Origin: a virus
Lineage: Duplodnaviria > Heunggongvirae > Uroviricota > Caudoviricetes
IMG/VR virus record: IMGVR_UViG_3300045988_019953
Span: 1 to 42,581 of that record
DNA: 42,581 nucleotides
Strand: one strand, 5' to 3'
This document shows, piece after piece, positions 4,631-24,943 of the stretch (positions within the stretch are counted from its first letter, which is position 1; each line of letters opens with the position of its first letter). Both the position numbers and the translations under genes were made by a program. Under the pieces are notes generated by a model. The model saw nothing but the letters and a program-made list of their open reading frames with translations. It did no database searches and had not been told where the DNA came from.

Positions 4631-4659
4631 TTGCACACCCCAATATAATAGGATACTAT
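4631..4659 (+). promoter_or_regulatory. Early promoter TTGCAC-17-TACTAT with dyad AATAG-N4-CTATT (4647-4660)
   Basis: Hexamers with 17-bp spacer; 23-mer nearly identical to those at 15540 and 24940; conserved leader TCACTTATCGAAACGAG. Confidence 0.55.
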
Positions 4660-4693
4660 TCACTTATCGAAACGAGACTGAGGAGTGAGGGTT

Positions 4694-5858: not shown

Positions 5859-5887
5859 TTGCACACTAAGATAGAATAGGCTACTAT
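5859..5887 (+). promoter_or_regulatory. Early promoter TTGCAC-17-TACTAT with dyad AATAG-N4-CTATT (5875-5888)
   Basis: Same architecture as 4631-4659; followed by RBS GAGGAGAG and ATG at 5919. Confidence 0.5.
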
Positions 5888-5918
5888 TCATTTACACGAA
5901 CAAGAGGAGAGACAGAAG

Positions 5919-7051: not shown

Positions 7052-7360
7052 TTGGATAAATTTACTGAAACAGTGACGGGGTGGCTTCTGGCTGCCGCTC
7101 TAGCTGGTGGGGTAATCGGTCTACGACAACATAAGTCCGTTATTTCCGGCCCTATCGACGGCTTCTGCTTTATCGCAACTGGCTTCACTTGCGCCGTATT
7201 TGGCGCACCTCTCGCATCTCAATGGTTCGGTATCACGGGCGAGCGCGAGATAGCCGGGTTGGGCTTCATTATTGCTATTCTCTGGATGCCTATCTATTCC
7301 CGTCTCTCCGGTATCGTCGCCGGAGAATACATCGCGCGTCGAGGAGGCACAGATGAATGA
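7052..7360 (+). CDS. Putative holin (multi-TM membrane protein)
   Basis: 102 aa with several hydrophobic segments; TTG start 6 nt after GGAGGA; directly upstream of endolysin. Confidence 0.5.
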   Translation: MDKFTETVTGWLLAAALAGGVIGLRQHKSVISGPIDGFCFIATGFTCAVFGAPLASQWFGITGEREIAGLGFIIAILWMPIYSRLSGIVAGEYIARRGGTDE

Positions 7361-7625
7361 ATTATTCTGGTTCGGCGGTATGCTGGCAATCGGAGGCACA
7401 TCGCTGTTTAATGTGTATCACCCCGGCGTGGACGACGGTCTATTTGGCCGGGTGCTCTATATCCTGACCACTATCGTCTGTGCCGCCGGGTGTATCCACC
7501 TGTTACAGGGCAGCATGTCACCGACGCTGCCGGAGACATTAATCGCATTAGTTGCGCTGCGACAGATTCGTCAGGCGTGGCTGTCATACGGAGGACATAA
7601 GCGTGTCTCGAAACATTTCAGATAA
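7353..7625 (+). CDS. Second small membrane protein (holin/antiholin-like)
   Basis: ATG 7353 after GAGGAGG, overlapping upstream stop; two hydrophobic segments; track lists a longer 7272 start. Confidence 0.45.
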   Translation: MNELFWFGGMLAIGGTSLFNVYHPGVDDGLFGRVLYILTTIVCAAGCIHLLQGSMSPTLPETLIALVALRQIRQAWLSYGGHKRVSKHFR

Positions 7626-8106
7626 TGGATTGCATTTTACCGCCGCGTTTGAGGGATTCCGCGGAACTGCATACAAAGCAACAAAGAACGAAAAATACTG
7701 GACTATAGGCTGGGGTCATACCGGGCCGGATGTGTATGAAGGACAGAAGATTACTGAGGGTCAGGGGCTACTGTTGCTGAACCGTGATATGCGGTGGGCT
7801 GTGAAAGCAGTCGACGAGGTAGCACACCCCTCACTGACCCAAGCCCAGTTTGATGCCGTTGTCGACCTGGTGTTCAACGCAGGACCCGGCGTTATCGCGG
7901 CCAACACCGGAACCGGTAAGGCACTACGGCAGGGAGACATCTCCACCTTACGGCATAAGTTGAGCCAGTTCATCAACCAACGCAACCCGAAAACGGGCAA
8001 ACTCGAGCCTGTTCTCGGCCTGCGTCGCCGGACCGCCGGGCGTCTGGCGCTGTTCGACGGTAAACCGTGGCAAGAGGCTGAGGCTATCGGGAGGGCTGTT
8101 AAATGA
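7603..8106 (+). CDS. Endolysin, lysozyme-like (GH24-type) muramidase
   Basis: Motif EGFRGTAYKATKNEKYWTIGWGHTG; likely GTG start 7603 after GGAGGA rather than track ATG 7552. Confidence 0.8.
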   Translation: MSRNISDNGLHFTAAFEGFRGTAYKATKNEKYWTIGWGHTGPDVYEGQKITEGQGLLLLNRDMRWAVKAVDEVAHPSLTQAQFDAVVDLVFNAGPGVIAANTGTGKALRQGDISTLRHKLSQFINQRNPKTGKLEPVLGLRRRTAGRLALFDGKPWQEAEAIGRAVK

Positions 8107-8195
8107 CAGAGTTTGACTTCATTTTCCTGGCTATTGGAGCTGGTGCTGTAGTTGGCGCTTTCTGGGGTGCTATCGATGCGTTTCGCAAAGGTTGA
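8103..8195 (+). CDS. Small hydrophobic peptide (30 aa), possible membrane component
   Basis: ATG overlaps endolysin stop (ATGA); single hydrophobic stretch; very short, speculative. Confidence 0.3.
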   Translation: MTEFDFIFLAIGAGAVVGAFWGAIDAFRKG

Positions 8196-8260
8196 CACCT
8201 GAGACTAATCCGACGATACTTAAATCACCTCCTGTTCCATCCCTCTGCTCTCCAGTTTTA

Positions 8261-8291
8261 TCCCGGCCCTGACCCAGCCGGGATTTTTTTT
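8261..8291 (+). terminator. Rho-independent terminator (TCCCGGC...GCCGGGA plus T8)
   Basis: GC stem followed by eight T residues; ends the lysis cluster. Confidence 0.7.
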
Positions 8292-8313
8292 ATCTATTTT
8301 CTGTAATGACTAG

Positions 8314-8342
8314 TTGACTATTACCATTGACCCTATTATATT
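8314..8342 (+). promoter_or_regulatory. Promoter TTGACT-17-TATATT with leader similar to other early promoters
   Basis: Hexamers read in sequence; leader CCATCGACAACGAG resembles TTATCGAAACGAG. Confidence 0.4.
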
Positions 8343-8375
8343 TACTCCATCGACAACGAGAACGGAGTAGAGAAG

Positions 8376-8525
8376 ATGAAAATCAGAGATACCGAAGCAT
8401 TCAAAGACGCGCAACTTATGGCGAGAATCGCTGTTAGTAACCAGAGCAACAGTATCCCGGCGGACGCGTTCTGGTCCGCGGCAATGCAGACACTGAAAGC
8501 AGCTTATGCAGGAGAGAAGAAATGA
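8376..8525 (+). CDS. Small hypothetical protein (49 aa)
   Basis: ATG 8376 after GGAG; track instead lists antisense ORFs here. Confidence 0.4.
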   Translation: MKIRDTEAFKDAQLMARIAVSNQSNSIPADAFWSAAMQTLKAAYAGEKK

Positions 8526-8689
8526 GCGAACAAATGTGCGAACACGGCCTCGTAATACAGACCTTATGGATAAGGCGCAAGGTAGATAACACCCCGTTCC
8601 CGACACGCGAGGAACTGATGAAACGTAACAGTTTCCCGGGGCCGGACAAGAATAAGTATCTCAATCGCATGTGGGGAGAGAAGAAATGA
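8522..8689 (+). CDS. Small hypothetical protein (55 aa)
   Basis: ATGA overlap with upstream gene; manual translation. Confidence 0.4.
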   Translation: MSEQMCEHGLVIQTLWIRRKVDNTPFPTREELMKRNSFPGPDKNKYLNRMWGEKK

Positions 8690-8886
8690 AAAGCAAAATG
8701 AAGATGATGGTACGTGCGTACGACAAAGAACTTAAGATATTTACAGACCTAAAGAGTAACAAGCGGACGCGCCGACAGTTAGCGCGAGTAATGGCGATTG
8801 AGTGGGTCGACGGCGACTACGATATCGACTGCCAGGATGACGCGGATGAGTTCGCCCGTGATGATATTTACTATTTGATTAATTGA
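8686..8886 (+). CDS. Hypothetical protein (66 aa)
   Basis: ATG 8686 after GGGGAGAG; same frame as track ORF 8671-8886. Confidence 0.5.
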   Translation: MKSKMKMMVRAYDKELKIFTDLKSNKRTRRQLARVMAIEWVDGDYDIDCQDDADEFARDDIYYLIN

Positions 8887-8897
8887 GGCGTAAGCAT

Positions 8898-9083
8898 ATG
8901 ACCGACCGTGAATACGAAAAGATGATGGTTGAGGCCGTTAATAGCGGTGTAGACATTAGCCACGTGATGCACGTCCTGAATACTAAAATCGCTGTAGCCG
9001 AGCAAATGGTTGAGTCACTTTACGAGACACGTCGTGAACTTATTAACCGCTTCAACCTGAACAAAGGTGATACCAATGCCTAA
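8898..9083 (+). CDS. Hypothetical protein (61 aa)
   Basis: ATG 8898 in frame with track ORF 8883-9083. Confidence 0.5.
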   Translation: MTDREYEKMMVEAVNSGVDISHVMHVLNTKIAVAEQMVESLYETRRELINRFNLNKGDTNA

Positions 9084-9228
9084 AATCACAATCGCATCGC
9101 TCGAGCGCCGTATTATGGTGCTTGAGTCGGAGAAACAGACGTTAGGCCGGCAACTGTCAATTAACGGTGAGTTTCAACTGGAGGCGTTTAAGTTGTTGCT
9201 TGAGCGCATGAAGAATGAAAGCGCCTGA
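9076..9228 (+). CDS. Small hypothetical protein (50 aa)
   Basis: Manual translation MPKITIASLERRIMVLESEKQ...; overlaps neighbours at both ends. Confidence 0.4.
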   Translation: MPKITIASLERRIMVLESEKQTLGRQLSINGEFQLEAFKLLLERMKNESA

Positions 9229-9397
9229 ACCAGTAGTAATTGATGGCGCCCTGTGGAAGCCTTACTCGGTTAACCACATAGACGCCGACGGGAAGAAGTT
9301 CAGCTTCTACATTTTTGCAATTAGCCGTGAGCACGCCGCTTGTGTGGTCGATGATATACGAGAAACGGCGTGGCTCGGTGATGAGATAGTGGGGTGA
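9215..9397 (+). CDS. Hypothetical protein (60 aa)
   Basis: Track ORF with ATG start. Confidence 0.5.
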   Translation: MKAPEPVVIDGALWKPYSVNHIDADGKKFSFYIFAISREHAACVVDDIRETAWLGDEIVG

Positions 9398-9399
9398 TT

Positions 9400-9660
9400 A
9401 TGGGGCAGATTGATCAACTCAAGAAGAACAACAAAGACCTTAAGAAGGCGCTTGGTAAGATTAACGGTAAGTATTCAAAAGCGACCCAGGAACTAACCGC
9501 TGCGAAACTGGAGATTGAACACTTAACGCGTGTTCGTGACATTCTGGAGAACTCAGAAACGTTGCGTAGCCAGAGGGCATGGATGAATACAACGGTATCA
9601 ATTCTGATTGGCGTAGCAGTTGGTGTGTTAGTTATGTGGGGTATTGGGTGTGTTCAGTGA
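9400..9660 (+). CDS. Coiled-coil protein with C-terminal transmembrane segment
   Basis: ATG 9400 after GGGGTGA; C-terminal SILIGVAVGVLVMWGIG is hydrophobic. Confidence 0.5.
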   Translation: MGQIDQLKKNNKDLKKALGKINGKYSKATQELTAAKLEIEHLTRVRDILENSETLRSQRAWMNTTVSILIGVAVGVLVMWGIGCVQ

Positions 9661-9820
9661 CATCAACGCAGCAATCGAAGAAGCAATCTGGCGTCGATAC
9701 AACGGTGAGCAACAGCGGCACTTCTGCCTCGTGCAACGCGGTAACATGATTGCCGTAGTGCAGGACCGCGATAACAAATATCCTAATGCGATGTGGACAA
9801 CGAGGAATTTCTTAGGATGA
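9650..9820 (+). CDS. Possible small protein (56 aa, GTG start uncertain)
   Basis: Open frame ending in TGA that overlaps the next ATG (ATGA); start codon ambiguous. Confidence 0.3.
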   Translation: MFSDINAAIEEAIWRRYNGEQQRHFCLVQRGNMIAVVQDRDNKYPNAMWTTRNFLG

Positions 9821-10053
9821 TTACCAGCATTCCTAACCTGATTAAAGAATTTGGCACGATGGCCGAGACATGCCGACAAACCGGCATCAACGAAATGACG
9901 ATTGCGAAGTACAGCAAAGACGTTAATTGCGAGCGCCACGTAATTTATAACAATCGTCTGATGACGCACGTTAAGACAAGCCCGGTGTTATTCACGCGCC
10001 GTGGTATCACTAAAACAGAGCAACGCATCGCTAAAGAGGAGAGTGAGGAATGA
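9817..10053 (+). CDS. Small protein with possible HTH (78 aa)
   Basis: ATG 9817; segment ETCRQTGINEMTIAKYSK is HTH-like; track lists an upstream GTG start 9793. Confidence 0.45.
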   Translation: MITSIPNLIKEFGTMAETCRQTGINEMTIAKYSKDVNCERHVIYNNRLMTHVKTSPVLFTRRGITKTEQRIAKEESEE

Positions 10054-10232
10054 TTGAGGTTTTAGAGTTTCTTAGCCGGTTTGGAAATAATGTATTTATT
10101 ATGGCGTTCGCATGGGCGCTTATATCAAGTTGGTCCGTAGTGAAGCAACTACCTAAGCTTCAATTATGGATGATTGTTGGCGGACTATACGTCTCTGGTA
10201 TCGCGGGCATCCTTTTGTGGTTTTTCAAATGA
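10050..10232 (+). CDS. Small membrane protein (two predicted TM helices)
   Basis: 60 aa, two hydrophobic stretches; last gene of the early rightward cluster. Confidence 0.5.
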   Translation: MIEVLEFLSRFGNNVFIMAFAWALISSWSVVKQLPKLQLWMIVGGLYVSGIAGILLWFFK

Positions 10233-10333
10233 GATTACTAATAATCCCTAACGCCTGGGCCATTCCCGTAACCAACGACCATTACGGCGGCGATGGTAAA
10301 AGAGCACCACGTCACGGCTTATACAACTGATAC

Positions 10334-10356
10334 AAGCCCCCTACGGAGGGCTTTTC
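10334..10356 (+). terminator. Terminator-like hairpin AAGCCCCC-TAC-GGAGGGCTT plus T-rich tail
   Basis: GC stem with one bulge followed by TTTTCTG. Confidence 0.5.
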
Positions 10357-10386
10357 TGTACATCCCGCCCAATCACCTTATATAAT
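10357..10386 (+). promoter_or_regulatory. Candidate promoter for packaging/structural operon (perfect -10 TATAAT at 10381-10386)
   Basis: TATAAT read in sequence; -35 weak (TGTACA at 18-bp spacing); sits just before terS. Confidence 0.4.
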
Positions 10387-10392
10387 CCCTTT

Positions 10393-10433
10393 AGACGCGT
10401 AGGGCGCGTCTGGTGCGCTCTGATGGTCAGACG
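10393..10433 (+). promoter_or_regulatory. Two adjacent inverted repeats in the terS leader
   Basis: AGACGCG-TAGGG-CGCGTCT at 10393-10411 (perfect 7-bp arms) and GCGCTCTGA...TCAGACGC at 10414-10433. Confidence 0.4.
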
Positions 10434-10451
10434 CATATGCAAGGGGATTCT

Positions 10452-10997
10452 ATGAAGCTGAAACTCAAGCAGCCATCGCCAGAGGTGGTGCAAGCTGCGC
10501 ATGAAGAAGCTGTTAGCGCAAACCGTCGCCGTAGGCGACCACGCGGTAAACAGAGCCTTTATCAATCATCCCGTAATTCCGCCGCATTGTGGGACCCGGA
10601 CTATTGCGACGAACTGATTCGTTTCTTCGACCGCACGTCATGGGAACTTGTGCCCACGTCTAAGGGTGACGAACGCCCGCTGATTCAGGATAAGCCGCCG
10701 TCGCTGGCCCGCTTCGCCTTACACATCGGCGTCACTATCCCGATCATCAAGCTGTGGCTGCGTGAGATTCCAGCTTTTGCAGAAGCATATGAGACAGCAC
10801 AGGCGCTGGAAGAGGCGTATTTCACTGAGACAGGGGCCGCGGGTATCTCCGCTACGTTTGCTGCCGCGAAGCTGGGCCTCGGTAAAGAGAAACCAGTTGA
10901 ATCTACAGAAGAGACAGCACCGACTGAGATTATTTTCAGTGTCGCGGAGCCTGTAGGTAAAATCGTAACAACGAATATGGGCGAGGTAGAGGAATGA
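10452..10997 (+). CDS. terS: Putative terminase small subunit
   Basis: Directly upstream of and overlapping terL; ATG 10452 after AAGGGGA; assignment by position, no motif verified. Confidence 0.5.
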   Translation: MKLKLKQPSPEVVQAAHEEAVSANRRRRRPRGKQSLYQSSRNSAALWDPDYCDELIRFFDRTSWELVPTSKGDERPLIQDKPPSLARFALHIGVTIPIIKLWLREIPAFAEAYETAQALEEAYFTETGAAGISATFAAAKLGLGKEKPVESTEETAPTEIIFSVAEPVGKIVTTNMGEVEE

Positions 10998-12244
10998 GTA
11001 TTCAGCTATCCGCGCCACAGGCTTTGTTCCTGAATTGTGACAATAAATACAAAGCATACGTCGGCGGCTTCGGAAGCGGCAAAACATTTGTCGGCTGTCT
11101 CGACCTGCTTACGTTTATGCTTAAGCACCCCGGTACGCGCCTGGGCTACTTCGGCCCGACATACCCGGCCATACGCGACATCTTCTACCCGACATTCGAG
11201 GAAGCGGCTAACCTGCTTGGCCTTGATGTGCTGGTTAAATCCGGCGACAAAGAGGTTGTGGTTACTCGCGGTAAGACGGTGCTCGGAACTGTTATCTGCC
11301 GTTCGATGGATAACCCCGGTTCGATAGTCGGCTTCAAAATCGCGGCTGCGGTAGTGGATGAACTGGACGTATTGAGCCGCGAGAAAGCTGAGCTGGCGTG
11401 GAACAAAATTGTGGCCCGTATGCGTCTGGTTATACCTGGCGTAACTAACCACATCTCTGTCACCACGACACCGGAAGGATTCAAGTTCGTCTACGCCAAG
11501 TTCAAAGAGAACCCGACGCCGAGTTACTCAATGGTGCAGGCTTCTACACACGAGAACGCGCGATTCCTGCCGCCGGATTACATTAGCTCGCTTACAGAGA
11601 CTTACCCGGCGCAACTGATTAACGCATATCTGAACGGTGAGTTCGTCAACCTTACCTCCGGCAGCGTGTATTACGCGTACGACCGCCGTAAGCACCGCAG
11701 CAAAGAGACAATTCATCCGGGCGACACGCTGTACATCGGGCAGGACTTCAACGTTACGAAGAACGCCAGCGCTGTGTACGTGCAGCGTAAAGACGGCTGG
11801 CACGCGGTTGCTGAACTGAAGGGCCTGTTCGATACGCCAGACACCGTGCGTGTAATTACTGAGAAGTGGAAATCGCAGGGCCACCGCATCGTCGTTTACC
11901 CCGATGCCAGCGGCAAGAACCGCAAAACCAACTCAGCATCAATCTCTGATATCGCATTACTCCAGCAGGCCGGGTTCGACGTTCGCGCTAAATCCGCCAA
12001 CCCCCCAGTTAAAGACCGTGTTTTAGCGGTGAATACCGCGCTGGAAAAAGGTAAGCTGTGGGTTAATGACCACTTATGCCCTGAGATAGCCAAGACGCTG
12101 GAGCAGCAGGCATACGATGATAACGGGGAGCCCGCTAAAGATGGCATCATTGACCATATGGCGGATGCTCTCGGCTATCCTGTAGTTTACGAGATGCCGG
12201 TGGTTAAACCAGTAATCAACATCCCGGTGACTTTCGCACTTTAA
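10994..12244 (+). CDS. terL: Terminase large subunit (ATPase plus nuclease)
   Basis: Walker A GGFGSGKT and Walker B-like AAVVDELD; acidic residues in C-terminal region; followed by portal. Confidence 0.85.
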   Translation: MSIQLSAPQALFLNCDNKYKAYVGGFGSGKTFVGCLDLLTFMLKHPGTRLGYFGPTYPAIRDIFYPTFEEAANLLGLDVLVKSGDKEVVVTRGKTVLGTVICRSMDNPGSIVGFKIAAAVVDELDVLSREKAELAWNKIVARMRLVIPGVTNHISVTTTPEGFKFVYAKFKENPTPSYSMVQASTHENARFLPPDYISSLTETYPAQLINAYLNGEFVNLTSGSVYYAYDRRKHRSKETIHPGDTLYIGQDFNVTKNASAVYVQRKDGWHAVAELKGLFDTPDTVRVITEKWKSQGHRIVVYPDASGKNRKTNSASISDIALLQQAGFDVRAKSANPPVKDRVLAVNTALEKGKLWVNDHLCPEIAKTLEQQAYDDNGEPAKDGIIDHMADALGYPVVYEMPVVKPVINIPVTFAL

Positions 12245-12256
12245 GAGGATTATTCA

Positions 12257-13732
12257 ATGTTAACTATGAACGGTCAGAATCAGGGTGTTAAGACAAAACA
12301 CCGAGAATGGCTGCATCACTTCAATAAATGGCAGAAAGTGCGTCACGCGCTGGAAGGCGACCTTATTCGCTATCTCCACGACGTAGGGAAGAACGAGCCT
12401 GACCCTACCTATGCAGCACAGCGCCAGGAAGAATACGAGAACGGAGCTATCTGCTACAACTTCACCAAGCGAACGCTGGCGGGGATGGTCGGCAGTGTCA
12501 TGCGCAAAGACCCTGAACAGATTATCCCGCCTGAACTTGAGTACCTGTTACGTAATGCCGACGGTTCCGGTGTCGGGCTGTGGCAGCACGCGCAGGATAC
12601 GCTAATGGAGATTGACTCAGTGGGCCGTGGTGGGTTGCTGGTTGATGCCCCGGAGACAGCTGCGGCAACGGCAGCCGAACAGAACGCGGGATTATTAAAC
12701 CCGGTCATCGCATTCTACACTGCGGAAAACATTATCAACTGGCGACTTACCCGCGTCGGTTCAGTTAACCGCGTGACTATGGTTGTGTTGCGTGAGGTAT
12801 GGGAGTACTCAGAACCGGGCGCAGAGTTCGAAACTAAGTTTGGTGAACAATACCGCGTTCTCGATTTGATTGACGGGCGTTACCGCCATCGAATATATCG
12901 CTTCGATGCCGAAGGTGGCGCTCAGGATGAAGTAATCGAAATATTCCCGGAACTTGGTGAACAGTTGCACGGTAGAATCCCATTCACGTTTATTGGTGCA
13001 AGCAACAACGACGCCACCATCGACGATGCGCCTTTGCTGCCGTTAGCTGAGCTTAATATTGGGCACTTCCGTAACAGCGCAGACAATGAGGAGTCCAGCT
13101 TCGTTGCGGGCCAGCCCACTCTGTTCATCGCCCCGGGCGAGAACATGAGTATGGAACAGTGGAAAGAGGCCAACCCTCACGGTGTCCGCATGGGGTCGCG
13201 TTCTGGCCATAACATCGGTTACGGCGGCAATGCGTTTCTGGTTCAGGCAGGAGCGAACAACCTTGCCAAACAGAATATGCTGGATAAAGAGAACCAGGCA
13301 ATCCAGATTGGTGCACAGCTTATCACCCCTACCCAGCAAATCACCGCTGAATCGGCCCGCTTGCAACGCGGCGCTGACACATCAGTTATGGCAACAATCG
13401 CACGTAACGTAAGCATGGCGTACACCGATGCGTTGCGCTGGGCGGCTGCGATGCTAGGGTTGCGCGAAGACACAGAGATTGAATTCAAGCTGAATATGGA
13501 GTTCTTCCTGCAACCGATGACCGCCCAGGACCGTGCTCAGTGGATGGCCGATATTAACGCGGGCCTGTTACCGGCTACTGCCTACTACGCGGCATTGCGC
13601 AAGGCTGGGGTGACTGACTGGACCGACGAGGACATTCAGAACGCTATCGAGGATGCGCCTCTGCCGTTGGCTACACAGACTACCGGGGAGATTCCGTCTA
13701 CAGCGCAGCAGGATGAAGAGGCGAAGCAATGA
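12257..13732 (+). CDS. Portal protein
   Basis: 491 aa immediately after terL with acidic C-terminus; assignment by size and synteny. Confidence 0.7.
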   Translation: MLTMNGQNQGVKTKHREWLHHFNKWQKVRHALEGDLIRYLHDVGKNEPDPTYAAQRQEEYENGAICYNFTKRTLAGMVGSVMRKDPEQIIPPELEYLLRNADGSGVGLWQHAQDTLMEIDSVGRGGLLVDAPETAAATAAEQNAGLLNPVIAFYTAENIINWRLTRVGSVNRVTMVVLREVWEYSEPGAEFETKFGEQYRVLDLIDGRYRHRIYRFDAEGGAQDEVIEIFPELGEQLHGRIPFTFIGASNNDATIDDAPLLPLAELNIGHFRNSADNEESSFVAGQPTLFIAPGENMSMEQWKEANPHGVRMGSRSGHNIGYGGNAFLVQAGANNLAKQNMLDKENQAIQIGAQLITPTQQITAESARLQRGADTSVMATIARNVSMAYTDALRWAAAMLGLREDTEIEFKLNMEFFLQPMTAQDRAQWMADINAGLLPATAYYAALRKAGVTDWTDEDIQNAIEDAPLPLATQTTGEIPSTAQQDEEAKQ

Positions 13733-14808
13733 GCCAGCTATCACAGATGATTATCAGCCATCAAATATGGCTACAGAGACTCGGAACGCAAACAGCGTCG
13801 CTGTCCGTCCCCTTCGTCAATAAGATGCGGGCTGAGGTGCGCGACGCGGTGCTTAAGTTCGGTGACGACGCGCGAACAGTGAAGAAGCTGAATAAAATGC
13901 TGGCAAGCCTGGATGGCGTCCTGGATGACGTCACCGGCGACTGGAAGAGCACGATAGAGAAGAGCCTGCGCGAGATTGCCGACTACGAGAATAAGTGGTT
14001 TATCCATACGCTGGAGGCCAACACGAAGCCGAAAACGTTCATTACTGGACCTACGGCAGAAGAACTGTGGTCGCGTATCAAGTTCGCACCACTGGCGCTG
14101 GGTAACGCACCTGTTGGCGTTATGGACCTGATGTCCGGTTGGGCCCAGACTGAGCGTAACCGCCTTGTCCGCGGCGTACAGACCGGCTTTGTGCAGGGAC
14201 AGACAACCCGCCAGATTGTCTCTGCCGTTGCGGGCCCTGGCGGCCTGGCTGATATCTCTGAGCGCAACGTAATGACGGTAGTCCGAACAGCAGTGAGCCA
14301 CGTATCGAACACGGCGCGAGATTCTGTGTACGACAGCAACAGCGATATTGTGAGCAAATATCAGTGGGTATCTACGCTCGACAGCCGCACTTCGACTGTA
14401 TGTAAGTCGCGCGACGGCCAGAAATATGACGTAGGTAGAGGGCCTATGCCCCCTGCACACCCAAACTGTCGCAGTACCACTATCCCGGTAATCGAAGATG
14501 ACTTCCTGGACTTTCTCGACGAGGGGGCTAAGCGGGCGGCTAAGGGCGCGGAAGGCGGTACTCAGGTAAGCGCAGACACCACTTATTACGAGTTCCTGAA
14601 ACAACAACCGGCATGGTTTCAGGACCAGGCTCTAGGACCTGTTCGCGGTAAGATTTTCCGTAACAGCGGTATATCGCCGGAAGAGTTTCGCGTAATATCT
14701 GTAGATGGTTTCGGGAATCCGCTCACGCTTAAGCAGATGGCGGAACTCGATAAACGTGTTGCTGATTATCTGAAAGGGACTAATGATGGGCTTTTTCAAA
14801 GTAACTGA
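13729..14808 (+). CDS. Head morphogenesis protein (Mu F / SPP1 gp7-like)
   Basis: Conserved block YQWVSTLDSRTSTVCKSRDGQKYD...PPAHPNCRSTTIP; follows portal. Confidence 0.75.
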   Translation: MSQLSQMIISHQIWLQRLGTQTASLSVPFVNKMRAEVRDAVLKFGDDARTVKKLNKMLASLDGVLDDVTGDWKSTIEKSLREIADYENKWFIHTLEANTKPKTFITGPTAEELWSRIKFAPLALGNAPVGVMDLMSGWAQTERNRLVRGVQTGFVQGQTTRQIVSAVAGPGGLADISERNVMTVVRTAVSHVSNTARDSVYDSNSDIVSKYQWVSTLDSRTSTVCKSRDGQKYDVGRGPMPPAHPNCRSTTIPVIEDDFLDFLDEGAKRAAKGAEGGTQVSADTTYYEFLKQQPAWFQDQALGPVRGKIFRNSGISPEEFRVISVDGFGNPLTLKQMAELDKRVADYLKGTNDGLFQSN

Positions 14809-15244
14809 TGTGCCGTCGCGCCGTGTAGTCCAGTACGCCCGTGTGTCTGGCTCTGGTGAGAACGTGGTGTTTATTGAAGATGAAAGTGTACTAGGTACAC
14901 CAGTAGACGATATGCCGTTTGCGGATAAGACAGGCATCGCACTTCCTGCGGCTGGTATGCTCTATGAAATTCCGTATCTGGCGGACGCTGGCGACGTGTA
15001 TTTCTCCGTACAACCGAAAGACACGGAACTGGCAGACGGCAGCGCAACTATCACTGTTGAAGTTAAGGCTGGCAAAGCGCCATATGCGCTGACCTGGTAC
15101 AAAGACGGTAAGGAAGTGGTAAACGCCCCGGAAGAGGCTCTGTCTTTGACAGTTAATGCAGTCGGTGAATACTTCGTTAAAGTTACTGATGCCGATGGTG
15201 TAGAGGCCGTAAGCAAAGCGGCGAAGGTTACTAAGCCGGAATGA
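14783..15244 (+). CDS. Hypothetical structural protein with Ig-like C-terminal domain
   Basis: C-terminal segment resembles bacterial Ig-like domains and the one in 18595-18948; start uncertain (overlaps upstream gene). Confidence 0.5.
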   Translation: MMGFFKVTDVPSRRVVQYARVSGSGENVVFIEDESVLGTPVDDMPFADKTGIALPAAGMLYEIPYLADAGDVYFSVQPKDTELADGSATITVEVKAGKAPYALTWYKDGKEVVNAPEEALSLTVNAVGEYFVKVTDADGVEAVSKAAKVTKPE

Positions 15245-15246
15245 TA

Positions 15247-15272
15247 AAAGGCCCCTTTCGGGGCCTTAGTTT
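15247..15272. terminator. Bidirectional rho-independent terminator (AAGGCCCC-TTTC-GGGGCCTT)
   Basis: 8-bp GC stem with A/T-rich flanks on both sides; between convergent genes. Confidence 0.65.
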
Positions 15273-15517: not shown

Positions 15518-15543
15518 ACACCCTCCTCGTTTCGATGTAATGA

Positions 15544-15572
15544 ATAGTACCCTATTATATTGGTGTCTGCAA
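15544..15572 (-). promoter_or_regulatory. Early-type promoter on minus strand (TTGCAG-17-TACTAT) with dyad AATAG-N4-CTATT (15543-15556)
   Basis: 23-mer identical to 24940-24962 and a 1-mismatch reverse complement of 4639-4661; leader matches early promoter leaders. Confidence 0.55.
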
Positions 15573-15638
15573 ACTATTTATTTACTTATTCCAGTTATTC
15601 CACTCAATCGTAAATGTTGGAATAAACTATTTGAATAG

Positions 15639-15667
15639 TTGACTTTTCACTAAAAATATGCTAAGCT
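15639..15667 (+). promoter_or_regulatory. Sigma70-like promoter TTGACT-17-TAAGCT driving conserved element copy B
   Basis: 28 of 29 positions identical to promoter at 4305-4333. Confidence 0.55.
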
Positions 15668-15673
15668 CCACCT

Positions 15674-15870
15674 GAGCTTGTGAAGTATGAACAAGCGACC
15701 GCGGCGCGGGCAGGTAACGGAGCGGGACGTAAGTCCTGAGTGTAGTTACGCTGACGCGTTCGGAAGGGCCATACTCTATTGCTTGTGTAAAAAGTAACTG
15801 ATTTACTGAGATTGCGCCGTTTCTATGTTTAAATGATAAGGACTAGCGCCCCGCTTTACGGCGGGGCTTT
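15674..15870 (+). ncRNA. Candidate structured small RNA, copy B
   Basis: Conserved core shared with 4340-4450, bounded by promoter and terminator; no ORF. Confidence 0.35.
15848..15870 (+). terminator. Rho-independent terminator (GCCCCGC-TTTACG-GCGGGGC plus TTT)
   Basis: 7-bp GC stem followed by a short T tract; ends copy B just before the Rz-like gene. Confidence 0.5.
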
Positions 15871-15891
15871 ACTTATCGAGAAAGGAGAAAC

Positions 15892-16278
15892 ATGAATCTT
15901 AAAGCAACTGTCGTAGCGGGAGCATGTTTCATCATCCTGGCTTACACACACGGCATCTACCAGTACCGCAGCGGCTGGGCCGAAGGCCGGGCTAATCTCG
16001 TTTCGCAGCAACAGCAGAAAGCACAGGCTGAGTTAGCGAAGAAAACACAACGGCAGCAGCAGGATGAATCGAAGGCAGCCGCCGCTGACAACGAAGGCAA
16101 GACGAAATCAGAGGTGATTACCCGTGAAGTCGTTAAGTACATCAAAACGCCTGGCCGCAGCGTGTGCACTTTCGATGATGCTCGCGTCCTGCTCAAGTCC
16201 CGCGCCGTCACAAATGCCAACTCCATCCCCGGATATGACGATGATGCAGCCGCCGTGCAAACTGGCCCCGCCAAGTAG
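15892..16278 (+). CDS. i-spanin (Rz-like)
   Basis: 128 aa; N-terminal TM (VVAGACFIILAY), Q-rich coiled coil, periplasmic C-terminus; contains an out-of-frame lipoprotein ORF. Confidence 0.7.
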   Translation: MNLKATVVAGACFIILAYTHGIYQYRSGWAEGRANLVSQQQQKAQAELAKKTQRQQQDESKAAAADNEGKTKSEVITREVVKYIKTPGRSVCTFDDARVLLKSRAVTNANSIPGYDDDAAAVQTGPAK

Positions 16279-22748: not shown

Positions 22749-22772
22749 AAGGCCCCTTTCGGGGCCTTTTTC
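22749..22772. terminator. Bidirectional terminator (AAGGCCCC-TTTC-GGGGCCTT)
   Basis: Same 16-mer core as 15250-15265; T tract on plus strand, A/T-rich on the other side. Confidence 0.65.
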
Positions 22773-24913: not shown

Positions 24914-24943
24914 TTTAAACCCCTTCATTGTTGGTGTAAGTGA

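Follow-up and report, generated by a model that had tools for sequence, protein, structure and literature searches.

The intergenic region at positions 10331–10451 of a 42,581-nt stretch of phage DNA (IMG/VR virus record IMGVR_UViG_3300045988_019953, positions 1 to 42,581; hereafter the window) directly precedes terS, the gene for the small subunit of the terminase. The best explanation of this region is that it controls the terminase (packaging) operon through a conserved module with four working parts. A preliminary description of the same DNA had recognized a terminator-like hairpin, a promoter hexamer and two inverted repeats here; a third, long-range helix (P1), which that description missed, gives the region its most likely function. 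We propose that terS translation is restricted to RNA that begins at the gene's own promoter, with P1 closing the ribosome site in RNA that reads through from upstream, and we give this proposal an even chance of being correct. That the terminator, the promoter and the two hairpins (P2 and P3) are real is much more certain than the gating mechanism. What the sequences show in silico is that the terminator, P2, P3 and the promoter hexamers exist and are conserved, with covariation, that the P1 strands are complementary, and that P1 is predicted to affect access to the ribosome site. The features concerned are as follows.

10334–10353, plus strand: stem-loop resembling an intrinsic terminator, AAGCCCCC-TACG-GAGGGCTT (loop UACG), with a U-tract at 10352–10359
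10357–10362, plus strand: −35-like hexamer TGTACA (4/6), with an 18-nt spacer to the −10, overlapping the last bases of the U-tract
10381–10386, plus strand: −10 hexamer TATAAT, a perfect match (6/6)
10384–10392, plus strand: 5' strand of P1, AAUCCCUUU, made of the last three −10 bases and the discriminator; complementary to the Shine–Dalgarno (SD) region and ending just upstream of the predicted +1
10393, plus strand: predicted transcription start, an A located 7 nt downstream of the −10, placed by the usual −10 to +1 spacing with an uncertainty of about 1–2 nt
10393–10411, plus strand: hairpin P2 (first inverted repeat), AGACGCG-UAGGG-CGCGUCU, at the 5' end of the predicted transcript
10413–10436, plus strand: hairpin P3 (second inverted repeat), with a lower stem of 5 pairs, bulged C10418, an upper stem of 5 pairs and loop UGG
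10441–10449, plus strand: 3' strand of P1, AAGGGGAUU, containing the terS SD sequence AAGGGGA (10441–10447)
10379–10455, plus strand: match of covariance model R1 to the whole leader (P1, P2 and P3), 84.1 bits, E = 2.9e-17, the sole match in the window
10452–10997, plus strand: terS, terminase small subunit, P22 gp3-like, ATG at 10452–10454
10994–12244, plus strand: terL, with Terminase_6N and Terminase_6C domains, its ATG overlapping the terS stop codon (ATGA)

In the proposed mechanism a Rho-independent terminator at 10334–10359 would end the upstream small-gene operon, and a host sigma-70 promoter would start RNA at about A10393. In this RNA, P2 and P3 would fold the 5' untranslated region (5' UTR) on itself and leave the terS SD and AUG free (2.8 kcal/mol); they would probably also shield the 5' end. 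RNAs leaking past the terminator would additionally carry 10384–10392, complementary to the SD region at 10441–10449, and the clamp provided by P2 and P3 would then yield a three-way junction that buries the SD and AUG (10–12 kcal/mol). Expression of terS, and of terL coupled to it, would thus be kept apart from transcription that comes from upstream and is presumably early. How virulent siphophages without an RNA polymerase or sigma factor of their own time and dose their late genes is poorly understood, and insulation of terminase expression from upstream transcription is a testable mechanism.

Conservation and covariation of the leader

The 1.4 kb around the leader matches 161 phage records at 80–95% identity, nearly all of them Kagunavirus and Jerseyvirus siphophages of Escherichia and Salmonella, and the window can be assigned to a Kagunavirus-like siphophage. 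The leader module lies upstream of terS in more than 400 Kagunavirus/Jerseyvirus records. Extraction of the leader from 91 loci of close relatives gave 45 distinct sequences. Kagunavirus vB_Eco_K1B4 (OQ696342.1), for which public time-course RNA-seq exists (PRJCA028359 / PRJNA939978), has a leader with 93.5% identity. When 29 close relatives were aligned, 95% of the cells paired, compared with 34–56% when the partners were slid; every helix contained at least one compensatory pair, and the changes in P2 were G·U wobbles. RNAalifold recovered, unaided, four helices: the terminator, P2, P3 and the core of the long-range helix (10384–10390 with 10443–10449).

The module is not confined to these two genera. 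A tblastn search found terS homologues with 30–38% identity in Dhillonvirus, Eiauvirus and St162-like phages, and the same module stands before terS in Dhillonvirus, Eiauvirus, St162-like and metagenomic phages with terS identities of 24–62%. Its layout in the distant relatives is a terminator hairpin and T-tract, TATAAT with a C directly after it, a hairpin with an AGG loop on a different stem, a second hairpin with a 5' bulge and a GAUGGUC core, and then the SD and ATG. Single-protein scans for terS loci reached only close relatives, and a metagenome scan with GATGGTCAKACGCAT returned mostly chance matches together with four true relatives, all close. The sample was therefore widened by IMG/VR loci and a profile search of protein databases (118 proteins, many with PF16677), and the DNA of 12 representatives picked by protein cluster only was inspected: the module was present in all 11 upstream regions that were readable. 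The distance from the −10 to the ATG is 71–79 nt throughout.

When 28 divergent leaders were aligned with MAFFT from sequence alone (A3), 80.7% of the cells paired, compared with 32–47% for slid partners, and 19 of the 26 pairs show compensatory two-sided changes. None of 500 shuffles reached the observed value on any of five measures, including two that rarely give false positives. The covariance model R1, built from A3, finds exactly one match in each relative's locus. An alignment of 45 leaders fitted to R1 (A4) is 86% paired, with compensatory changes in 20 of 26 pairs; since A4 was fitted to the model, the figures from the unfitted A3 are the conservative ones. One-sided changes in the leader helices are mainly G·U wobbles.

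Rfam 15 gave no match at the gathering score anywhere in the window, and permissive Rfam scans of the region and of 2 kb around it gave weak hits only, between the terminator hairpin and terminators in small RNA models (E values of 1.9 and 5.4). A literature search found no paper describing this leader. What was an unannotated gap of about 120 nt thus becomes a defined, covariation-rich RNA element in Kagunavirus, Jerseyvirus, Dhillonvirus, Eiauvirus and many metagenomic Enterobacteriaceae phages, and several of the phages that carry it are used in phage therapy and biocontrol.

The long-range helix P1 and access to the terS ribosome site

P1 is present in both the minimum free energy and the centroid folds, and its placement, from the end of the −10 through the discriminator to the predicted +1, is the same in other lineages. 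The predicted cost of opening the segment from the SD to the AUG is 10.2–11.8 kcal/mol in RNA started upstream, compared with 2.8 kcal/mol in RNA starting at 10390–10394. This gain of 7.4 kcal/mol was matched or exceeded by one of 94 SD-plus-ATG contexts from the same genome (null 0.1 ± 1.7), and P1 is unusual in its context because P2 and P3 hold its strands together. Across 21 lineage representatives the mean gain was +5.3 kcal/mol, with 17 above the 95th percentile of the null and 11 above the 99th. In the promoter-initiated RNA, by comparison, the ribosome site is predicted to be unusually open: 20 of the 21 lineages have values of 0.6–4.4 kcal/mol, whereas the controls average 6.6.

Between lineages, changes in the discriminator go along with changes in the SD flank, the combinations being AAUCCCUUU/AAGGGGAUU, AAUCGCCUGA/UCAGGAGAUU, AAUCCCUG/CGGGGAUU and AAUCCUUU/AGAGGAUU. 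Cognate P1 duplexes average −9.75 kcal/mol and non-cognate ones −7.66 kcal/mol (p = 5e-5 by permutation, an optimistic value). The predicted gating effect is also associated with a strong upstream terminator, with a mean of 6.7 kcal/mol where a strong terminator is present and 0.8 kcal/mol where it is not (p = 0.003 by the Mann–Whitney test, likewise optimistic). Little or no effect in the lineages without a strong terminator is as expected if P1 serves to silence read-through RNA. Finally, GAUU is found 3' of the SD in most lineages, and pairing with 16S rRNA does not explain it.

Several points weigh against gating. We infer where transcription starts, that read-through RNA exists and how much of it there is, and how translation is affected; the start is predicted only, and the sole Kagunavirus RNA-seq paper reports gene-level timing without start sites. 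An efficient terminator would leave little read-through RNA to gate, a constitutive promoter combined with gating alone would leave late timing unexplained, and the model does not account for the conserved hairpin loops. The bare P1 duplex, at −11.9 kcal/mol, is unremarkable, being equalled by 18–22% of random, SD-like or shuffled controls; that test was not significant, and the accessibility and cognate/non-cognate tests were used in its place. The Kagunavirus discriminators CCATTT, CCAATT and CTATTT weaken P1 to −4 to −6 kcal/mol without compensation, three of the 21 lineage representatives (L263, L293 and L300) show no effect, and only three of the nine P1 pairs have two-sided changes, with 70–78% of the cells pairing. 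Both strands of P1 are functional already, one as part of the −10 and the other as the SD, and their complementarity could in part be a by-product. The permutation and Mann–Whitney p-values are optimistic because related sequences were treated as independent, and the representatives without a terminator were drawn from few clades.

The leading alternative is an ordinary junction of terminator, promoter and 5' UTR, in which the hairpins are generic 5' stabilizers or insulators and the complementarity between −10 and SD is a by-product with no regulatory role. Stem-loops at the 5' end protect Escherichia coli mRNAs from RNase E and RppH, as in the ompA 5' UTR, and P2 starts at the predicted +1, so that the terS leader, like the ompA stabilizer, would have a stable hairpin within a base or two of its 5' end. 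The open ribosome site of the promoter-initiated RNAs fits this explanation, as do the unexceptional energy of the raw P1 duplex and the existence of uncompensated variants that weaken it. On the other hand, it does not provide for the covariation of the discriminator with the SD flank, for a GAUU conserved without a 16S-pairing reason, or for a rise in opening cost that is specific to read-through RNA, exceeds the 95th percentile of the null in 17 of 21 lineages and is tied to the upstream terminator. The stabilizing function of the ompA type is not sequence-specific and needs neither conserved loops, nor a conserved bulge, nor a fixed span of 71–79 nt, whereas in the terS leader the loops, the bulge and the total length are conserved and a third helix engages the ribosome site. 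We consider this alternative unlikely, although it has to be taken seriously.

Gating by P1 has a close parallel in phage T4, where the late promoters of genes e, soc, 49 and I-TevI form part of the 5' strand of a hairpin, and early transcripts fold this hairpin over the ribosome site (PMC3014915). As in those genes, the terS SD and/or AUG are predicted to pair with an upstream strand that holds the gene's own proximal promoter, long RNAs started upstream are predicted to fold shut while RNAs begun at the proximal promoter do not contain that 5' strand and stay open, and the protein held back is one that could do harm if made early. The differences are that the promoter is of the host sigma-70 type rather than the T4 late TATAAATA/gp55 type, that the inhibitory fold is a three-way junction around two conserved hairpins rather than a simple hairpin, that a terminator precedes it, and that the gene is a terminase gene in a module common to several siphophage genera and known here in silico. 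According to the folding model, then, the terS leader would work like the T4 cases without being a member of the T4 system: the known principle would be transcript-specific sequestration of the ribosome-binding site, found here with a host promoter, a terminase gene and a conserved two-hairpin leader. If this is true, the T4 device of a late promoter inside an inhibitory hairpin extends to phages that use host promoters and to the packaging enzyme. The combination of terminator, promoter and insulating leader also represents a compact natural part for phage engineering.

Terminator, promoter and hairpins

The boundary between the early region and the packaging operon lies where the preliminary description placed it, as the upstream small-gene operon ends and the terS/terL operon begins here. 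The terminator-like hairpin reported before terS also stands. It starts 3 nt past the stop codon at 10328–10330; TTCTGT follows directly 3' of the stem at 10334–10353, and the U-tract reads UUUUCUGU from 10352. Its stem is conserved in 29 distinct Kagunavirus/Jerseyvirus leaders, with a compensatory pair (UA in 19, GC in 8) and G·U wobbles, and a strong hairpin with a T-tract abutting the −35 occurs in 14 of 20 lineage representatives. The prediction that the hairpin at 10334–10359 behaves as a Rho-independent terminator is supported by this pattern. Homology with many Jerseyvirus phages begins exactly at window position 10332/10333, which indicates that the module from the terminator to terS is inherited as a block, with differing genes upstream.

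A strict terminator scan of positions 8000–13000, which called for a perfect stem of at least 5 pairs, found none. It was negative at 10334 because of a C10340·A10347 mismatch that is present in this genome only and in none of the other distinct relatives, which have a perfect 8-bp stem; the stem here is at −10.5 kcal/mol, compared with −14.8 kcal/mol for the family consensus. This genome-specific T-to-C change at 10340 leaves the stem about 4 kcal/mol weaker than in every other relative examined, and read-through into terS may for that reason be higher in this isolate.

The combination of a perfect −10 with a poor −35, noted in the preliminary description, is also present as reported, and the full pattern TGTACA-18-TATAAT occurs only once in the window. 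Within Kagunavirus/Jerseyvirus the U-tract and −35 (TTTTCTGTACA) do not vary, and each relative has either TATAAT or TACAAT as its −10; in the 28 divergent leaders, −10 positions T1, A2, A4, A5 and T6 are invariant and the third is T or C. Identity within Kagunavirus/Jerseyvirus is 100% in the −35 and 95% in the −10, compared with 78% in the spacer. The 18-nt spacer exists in three unrelated versions among close relatives, and spacers are unrelated between distant lineages as well. Conservation of the hexamers and of their 17–18 nt spacing while the spacer is free is the signature of a promoter, and the assignment of TATAAT to one is thereby strengthened. Many relatives have a better −35: it begins with TTG at 16–17 nt from the −10 in 14 of 20 lineage representatives and is TTGCCA, TTGCCT or TTGCTA (4–5/6) 17 nt before TATAAT in 11 of the 20, and the Dhillonviruses have TTGGTG-17 with an extended −10 (TGtTATAAT). 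The T-tract of the terminator runs directly into the −35. Judged by these sequences, the terS promoters form a family of ordinary host sigma-70 promoters, with TGTACA-18 of Kagunavirus/Jerseyvirus as the version with the weakest −35. As had been noted, the early-promoter dyads are lacking here: the recurrent 15-nt dyad GAATAGTAnCCTATT, which marks five other promoters in the genome, does not occur in the terS leader region, and the terminase promoter appears to belong to a class separate from the dyad promoters.

The first inverted repeat, AGACGCG-N5-CGCGTCT at 10393–10411, is exact, and both repeats sit at the predicted transcript start as described. The second is real, but its coordinates had been given one base off, as 10414–10433; the arms in the DNA are GCGCTCTGA (10415–10423) and TCAGACGC (10427–10434), and the GAUGGUC core lies at 10422–10428. 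The 44 nt from 10393 to 10436 fold to −22.4 kcal/mol, which places them in the top 0.09% of plus-strand 44-nt windows (z = −3.07 against dinucleotide shuffles). All 7 pairs of P2 change on both sides across the family, in the sequence-only alignment of 28 as well as in the model-fitted alignment of 45, and P3 shows two-sided changes in 9 of 10 (sequence-only) or 10 of 10 (fitted) pairs, with 89–94% of the cells pairing. G·U and U·G pairs are frequent and would be C·A mismatches on the other strand, which indicates that the hairpins act as plus-strand RNA; we therefore interpret P2 and P3 as RNA structures of that strand, not as DNA operators or palindromes. An alternative pairing of GCGTCTG with CAGACGC (10406–10412 with 10428–10434), or a triple AGACGC repeat serving as a protein site, was rejected, as neither is kept in Jerseyvirus.

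These results bear on the interpretation favored in the preliminary description, namely a weak promoter served by a late activator of the phage, with the repeats as the activator's DNA site. In this genome the −35 is indeed poor, at 18 nt and with no extended −10, and the discriminator is C-rich. Staphylococcal phages do have activator-dependent promoters before terS, with RinA as the DNA-binding activator of a tightly regulated promoter (PMC3152322), and the leader resembles that system in being a dedicated control region directly 5' of terS for the packaging or late operon. The better −35 of relatives removes the main argument for an activator, however: most lineages have a −35 of the TTGCC(A/T) type at 17 nt. 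Furthermore, the repeats lie downstream of the start and behave as RNA, with stems that covary and half-sites that show no conservation at the DNA level; the genome contains them a single time; no RinA-like gene was recognized next to the terS leader, and the adjacent open reading frames (ORFs) contain no recognizable regulator, their matches being NinH or families of unknown function. Activator-dependent late transcription of this kind is very unlikely.

The freedom of the stem sequences likewise argues against the inverted repeats being a DNA-level recognition site for the terminase (pac), a reading that we regard as the least probable of all. SPP1, P22 and Sf6 have their pac sites within or beside terS; that of P22, however, lies inside gene 3, and the terS family here is P22 gp3-like (PF16677). 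The stems tolerate sequence change wherever pairing is kept, with G·U pairs among them that are C·A mismatches on the other strand, and the start points of GenBank records scatter, with no common end in the leader. In favor of this reading, Kagunavirus-like phages package by a headful mechanism, and papers on their packaging give no pac position (PMC10783031, PMC9409062).

The hairpins might also belong to a processive antitermination RNA like the put RNAs of HK022, or P1 stacked on P3 might form an RNase III site in read-through RNA; we consider both highly improbable. Two stem-loops directly downstream of a promoter, and several strong terminators in the late region (15248, 15848, 18239, 22749 and 25632), speak for antitermination, and P1 (up to 13 bp) together with P3 might come close to being long enough for RNase III. 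As in HK022 put and lambda PR'-qut-tR', a structured RNA or control site stands at the promoter of a late or long operon. Unlike in those systems, no terminator separates the promoter from the genes or lies within the operon, no plus-strand terminator being predicted in 10452–15247, and the head and tail operons have dyad-type promoters of their own at 15542 and 24942. The antitermination role suggested for the hairpins in the preliminary description is unlikely for these reasons. The put RNAs are much larger than the element of about 43 nt found here, which matches none of them in sequence or model and has no Rfam match. A lambda Q/qut arrangement was rejected, there being neither a terminator between promoter and gene nor a −10-like pause element in the initial transcribed region of the terS leader. 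The 5' arm of P3, CGCTCTGA, resembles lambda boxA, CGCTCTTA, beside a hairpin as in the nut sites of lambda and rrn. Unlike in nut, the boxA-like bases lie inside a stem, and where they become CGCTATGA the partner strand changes so as to compensate; pairing rather than boxA identity is therefore what is selected, and boxA/nut was rejected too.

The loops of P2 and P3 (10400–10404 and 10422–10428) are conserved far beyond the requirements of a stem, and no explanation tested accounts for this; binding of some factor to them is a possible reason. AGG and UGG predominate in the P2 loop, and 26 of 28 lineage leaders have GA-UGG-UC or GA-CGG-UC as the P3 loop with its closing pairs. One reading is that P2 and P3 form an RNA operator for a trans-acting protein (terS autoregulation, another phage protein or a host factor) that recognizes the NGG loops and would time or limit terminase translation, possibly alongside P1. 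Loops more conserved than stems would be expected of such an operator, two similar loops would fit a dimeric binder, and phage translational operators have precedents in T4 RegA, gp32 and gp43 (PMC3014915). Against this, the candidate protein is only hypothetical, the loops vary (AGA, UGA, UUGGG and CGG), and they have neither the GGA of CsrA sites nor boxB features, so that no known binder fits; a CsrA site was rejected, as there is no GGA in the P2 and P3 loops. We think an RNA operator quite improbable.

A broader possibility, which we put forward tentatively as less probable than gating alone, is that the leader is a widely conserved, undescribed terminase leader RNA in which the junction reads the origin of the transcript and the NGG loops are bound by a phage or host factor that times or doses the terminase. 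Bacterial Avs immune receptors sense the terminase (PMC11564622), and if this broader possibility is true, the purpose of the leader could be to keep the terminase scarce until late in infection.

The terS start, neighboring genes and other control sites

The genes and control sites upstream of the leader that complete its context are the following.

7052–8106, plus strand: two holins and an endolysin, upstream of the small-ORF operon
about 8265–8291 and 8314–8342, plus strand: hairpin with a T-run, then a good sigma-70 promoter preceding the small ORFs
10229–10330, plus strand: 33-aa micro-ORF, the last gene of the upstream small-gene operon, with its stop codon at 10328–10330

The profile phrog_3064 aligns residues 1–166 of terS with profile positions 1–168 of 175, that is, from residue 1 of the protein starting at ATG 10452, and terS homologues carry PF16677. 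The overlap of the terL ATG with the terS stop codon suggests that terL translation is probably coupled to that of terS. Many GenBank records annotate the start of terS at the GTG or ATG equivalent of 10413, and several genomes are linearized there; GTG 10413 lies in the lower stem of P3, 8–9 nt 3' of an SD-like AGGG in the P2 loop. An N-terminal extension of 13 codons from GTG 10413 was rejected, as its changes between genera are all non-synonymous and the phrog_3064 profile begins at ATG 10452. Two of these changes are the compensating halves of one stem pair. The distance from the GAUGGUC motif to the ATG is 30, 35 or 36 nt depending on the lineage, which leaves no fixed reading frame, and the codon equivalent to GTG 10413 in other lineages is out of frame, directly followed by a stop codon, or missing. 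The extension is very likely an annotation artifact, in which case the terS starts of many GenBank records, placed 13 codons too early and within hairpin P3, can be corrected.

The 33-aa ORF matches phrog_32259 over its full length (1–33 of 33, E = 1e-15), and its end at 10330 sets the true extent of the intergenic region at 10331–10451. Its ATG overlaps the stop codon of a 60-aa ORF at 10050–10232 (ATGA), to which it is translationally coupled. At the DNA level it matches, at 75–90%, unannotated stretches of 50–52-kb coliphages and an Enterobacter phage (tonnikala, tonijn, BubbaBully and AS5), and it looks like a conserved micro-gene overlooked by most annotations. Ten small ORFs, including one for a NinH-like protein, lie between the promoter at 8314–8342 and the terminase region. 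A terminator abutting a promoter is also found one operon upstream of the terminase module, at 8262–8342, where the endolysin gene is followed by a hairpin (CCCGGC/GCCGGG, loop of 9 nt) with a T8 run and then by TTGACT-17-TATATT before the small-ORF operon; this terminator was not caught by the strict scan because its loop exceeds 8 nt.

Among the database records, L257 (PV052269.1, Salmonella phage SE124_3H4) has a taxonomy line reading Rountreeviridae; Sarlesvirinae; Minhovirus, yet its leader and terS region match Jersey-like Guernseyvirinae, and the taxonomy looks like a database mislabel.

The dyad GAATAGTAnCCTATT occurs at 1001–1015, 4647–4661 and 5875–5889 on the minus strand and at 15542–15556 and 24942–24956 on the plus strand, compared with 0.01 copies expected by chance. 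Its flanks are conserved, with TTCGATaaGT before the dyad and ATATTGGGGTGTGCAAG after it, and the dyad overlaps promoter-like hexamers. It matches a "phage promoter" consensus predicted by PHIRE for Kagunavirus fBC-Eco01 (PMC9825357). Copies stand before the head and tail operons and also before operons on the minus strand, so they are not just early promoters; they probably represent an operator-bearing promoter class. About 300 nt past the dyad promoter at 15542 stands a strong terminator at 15848–15867, just 5' of an SD and an ATG at 15893; ORF 15892–16278 opens the head-gene block. This layout of promoter, leader, terminator and gene at 15542–15895 recalls lambda PR'-tR' and, by analogy, suggests attenuation or antitermination. 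A second dyad, ACTATTTGAATAGT (15626–15639), abuts a −35-like hexamer, TTGACT (15639–15644). A 20-nt bidirectional terminator hairpin, AAGGCCCCTTTCGGGGCCTT, is used twice, at 15248–15267 and 22749–22768, and stems of the AAGGCCC type recur at two further operon ends, near 34200 and 40481.

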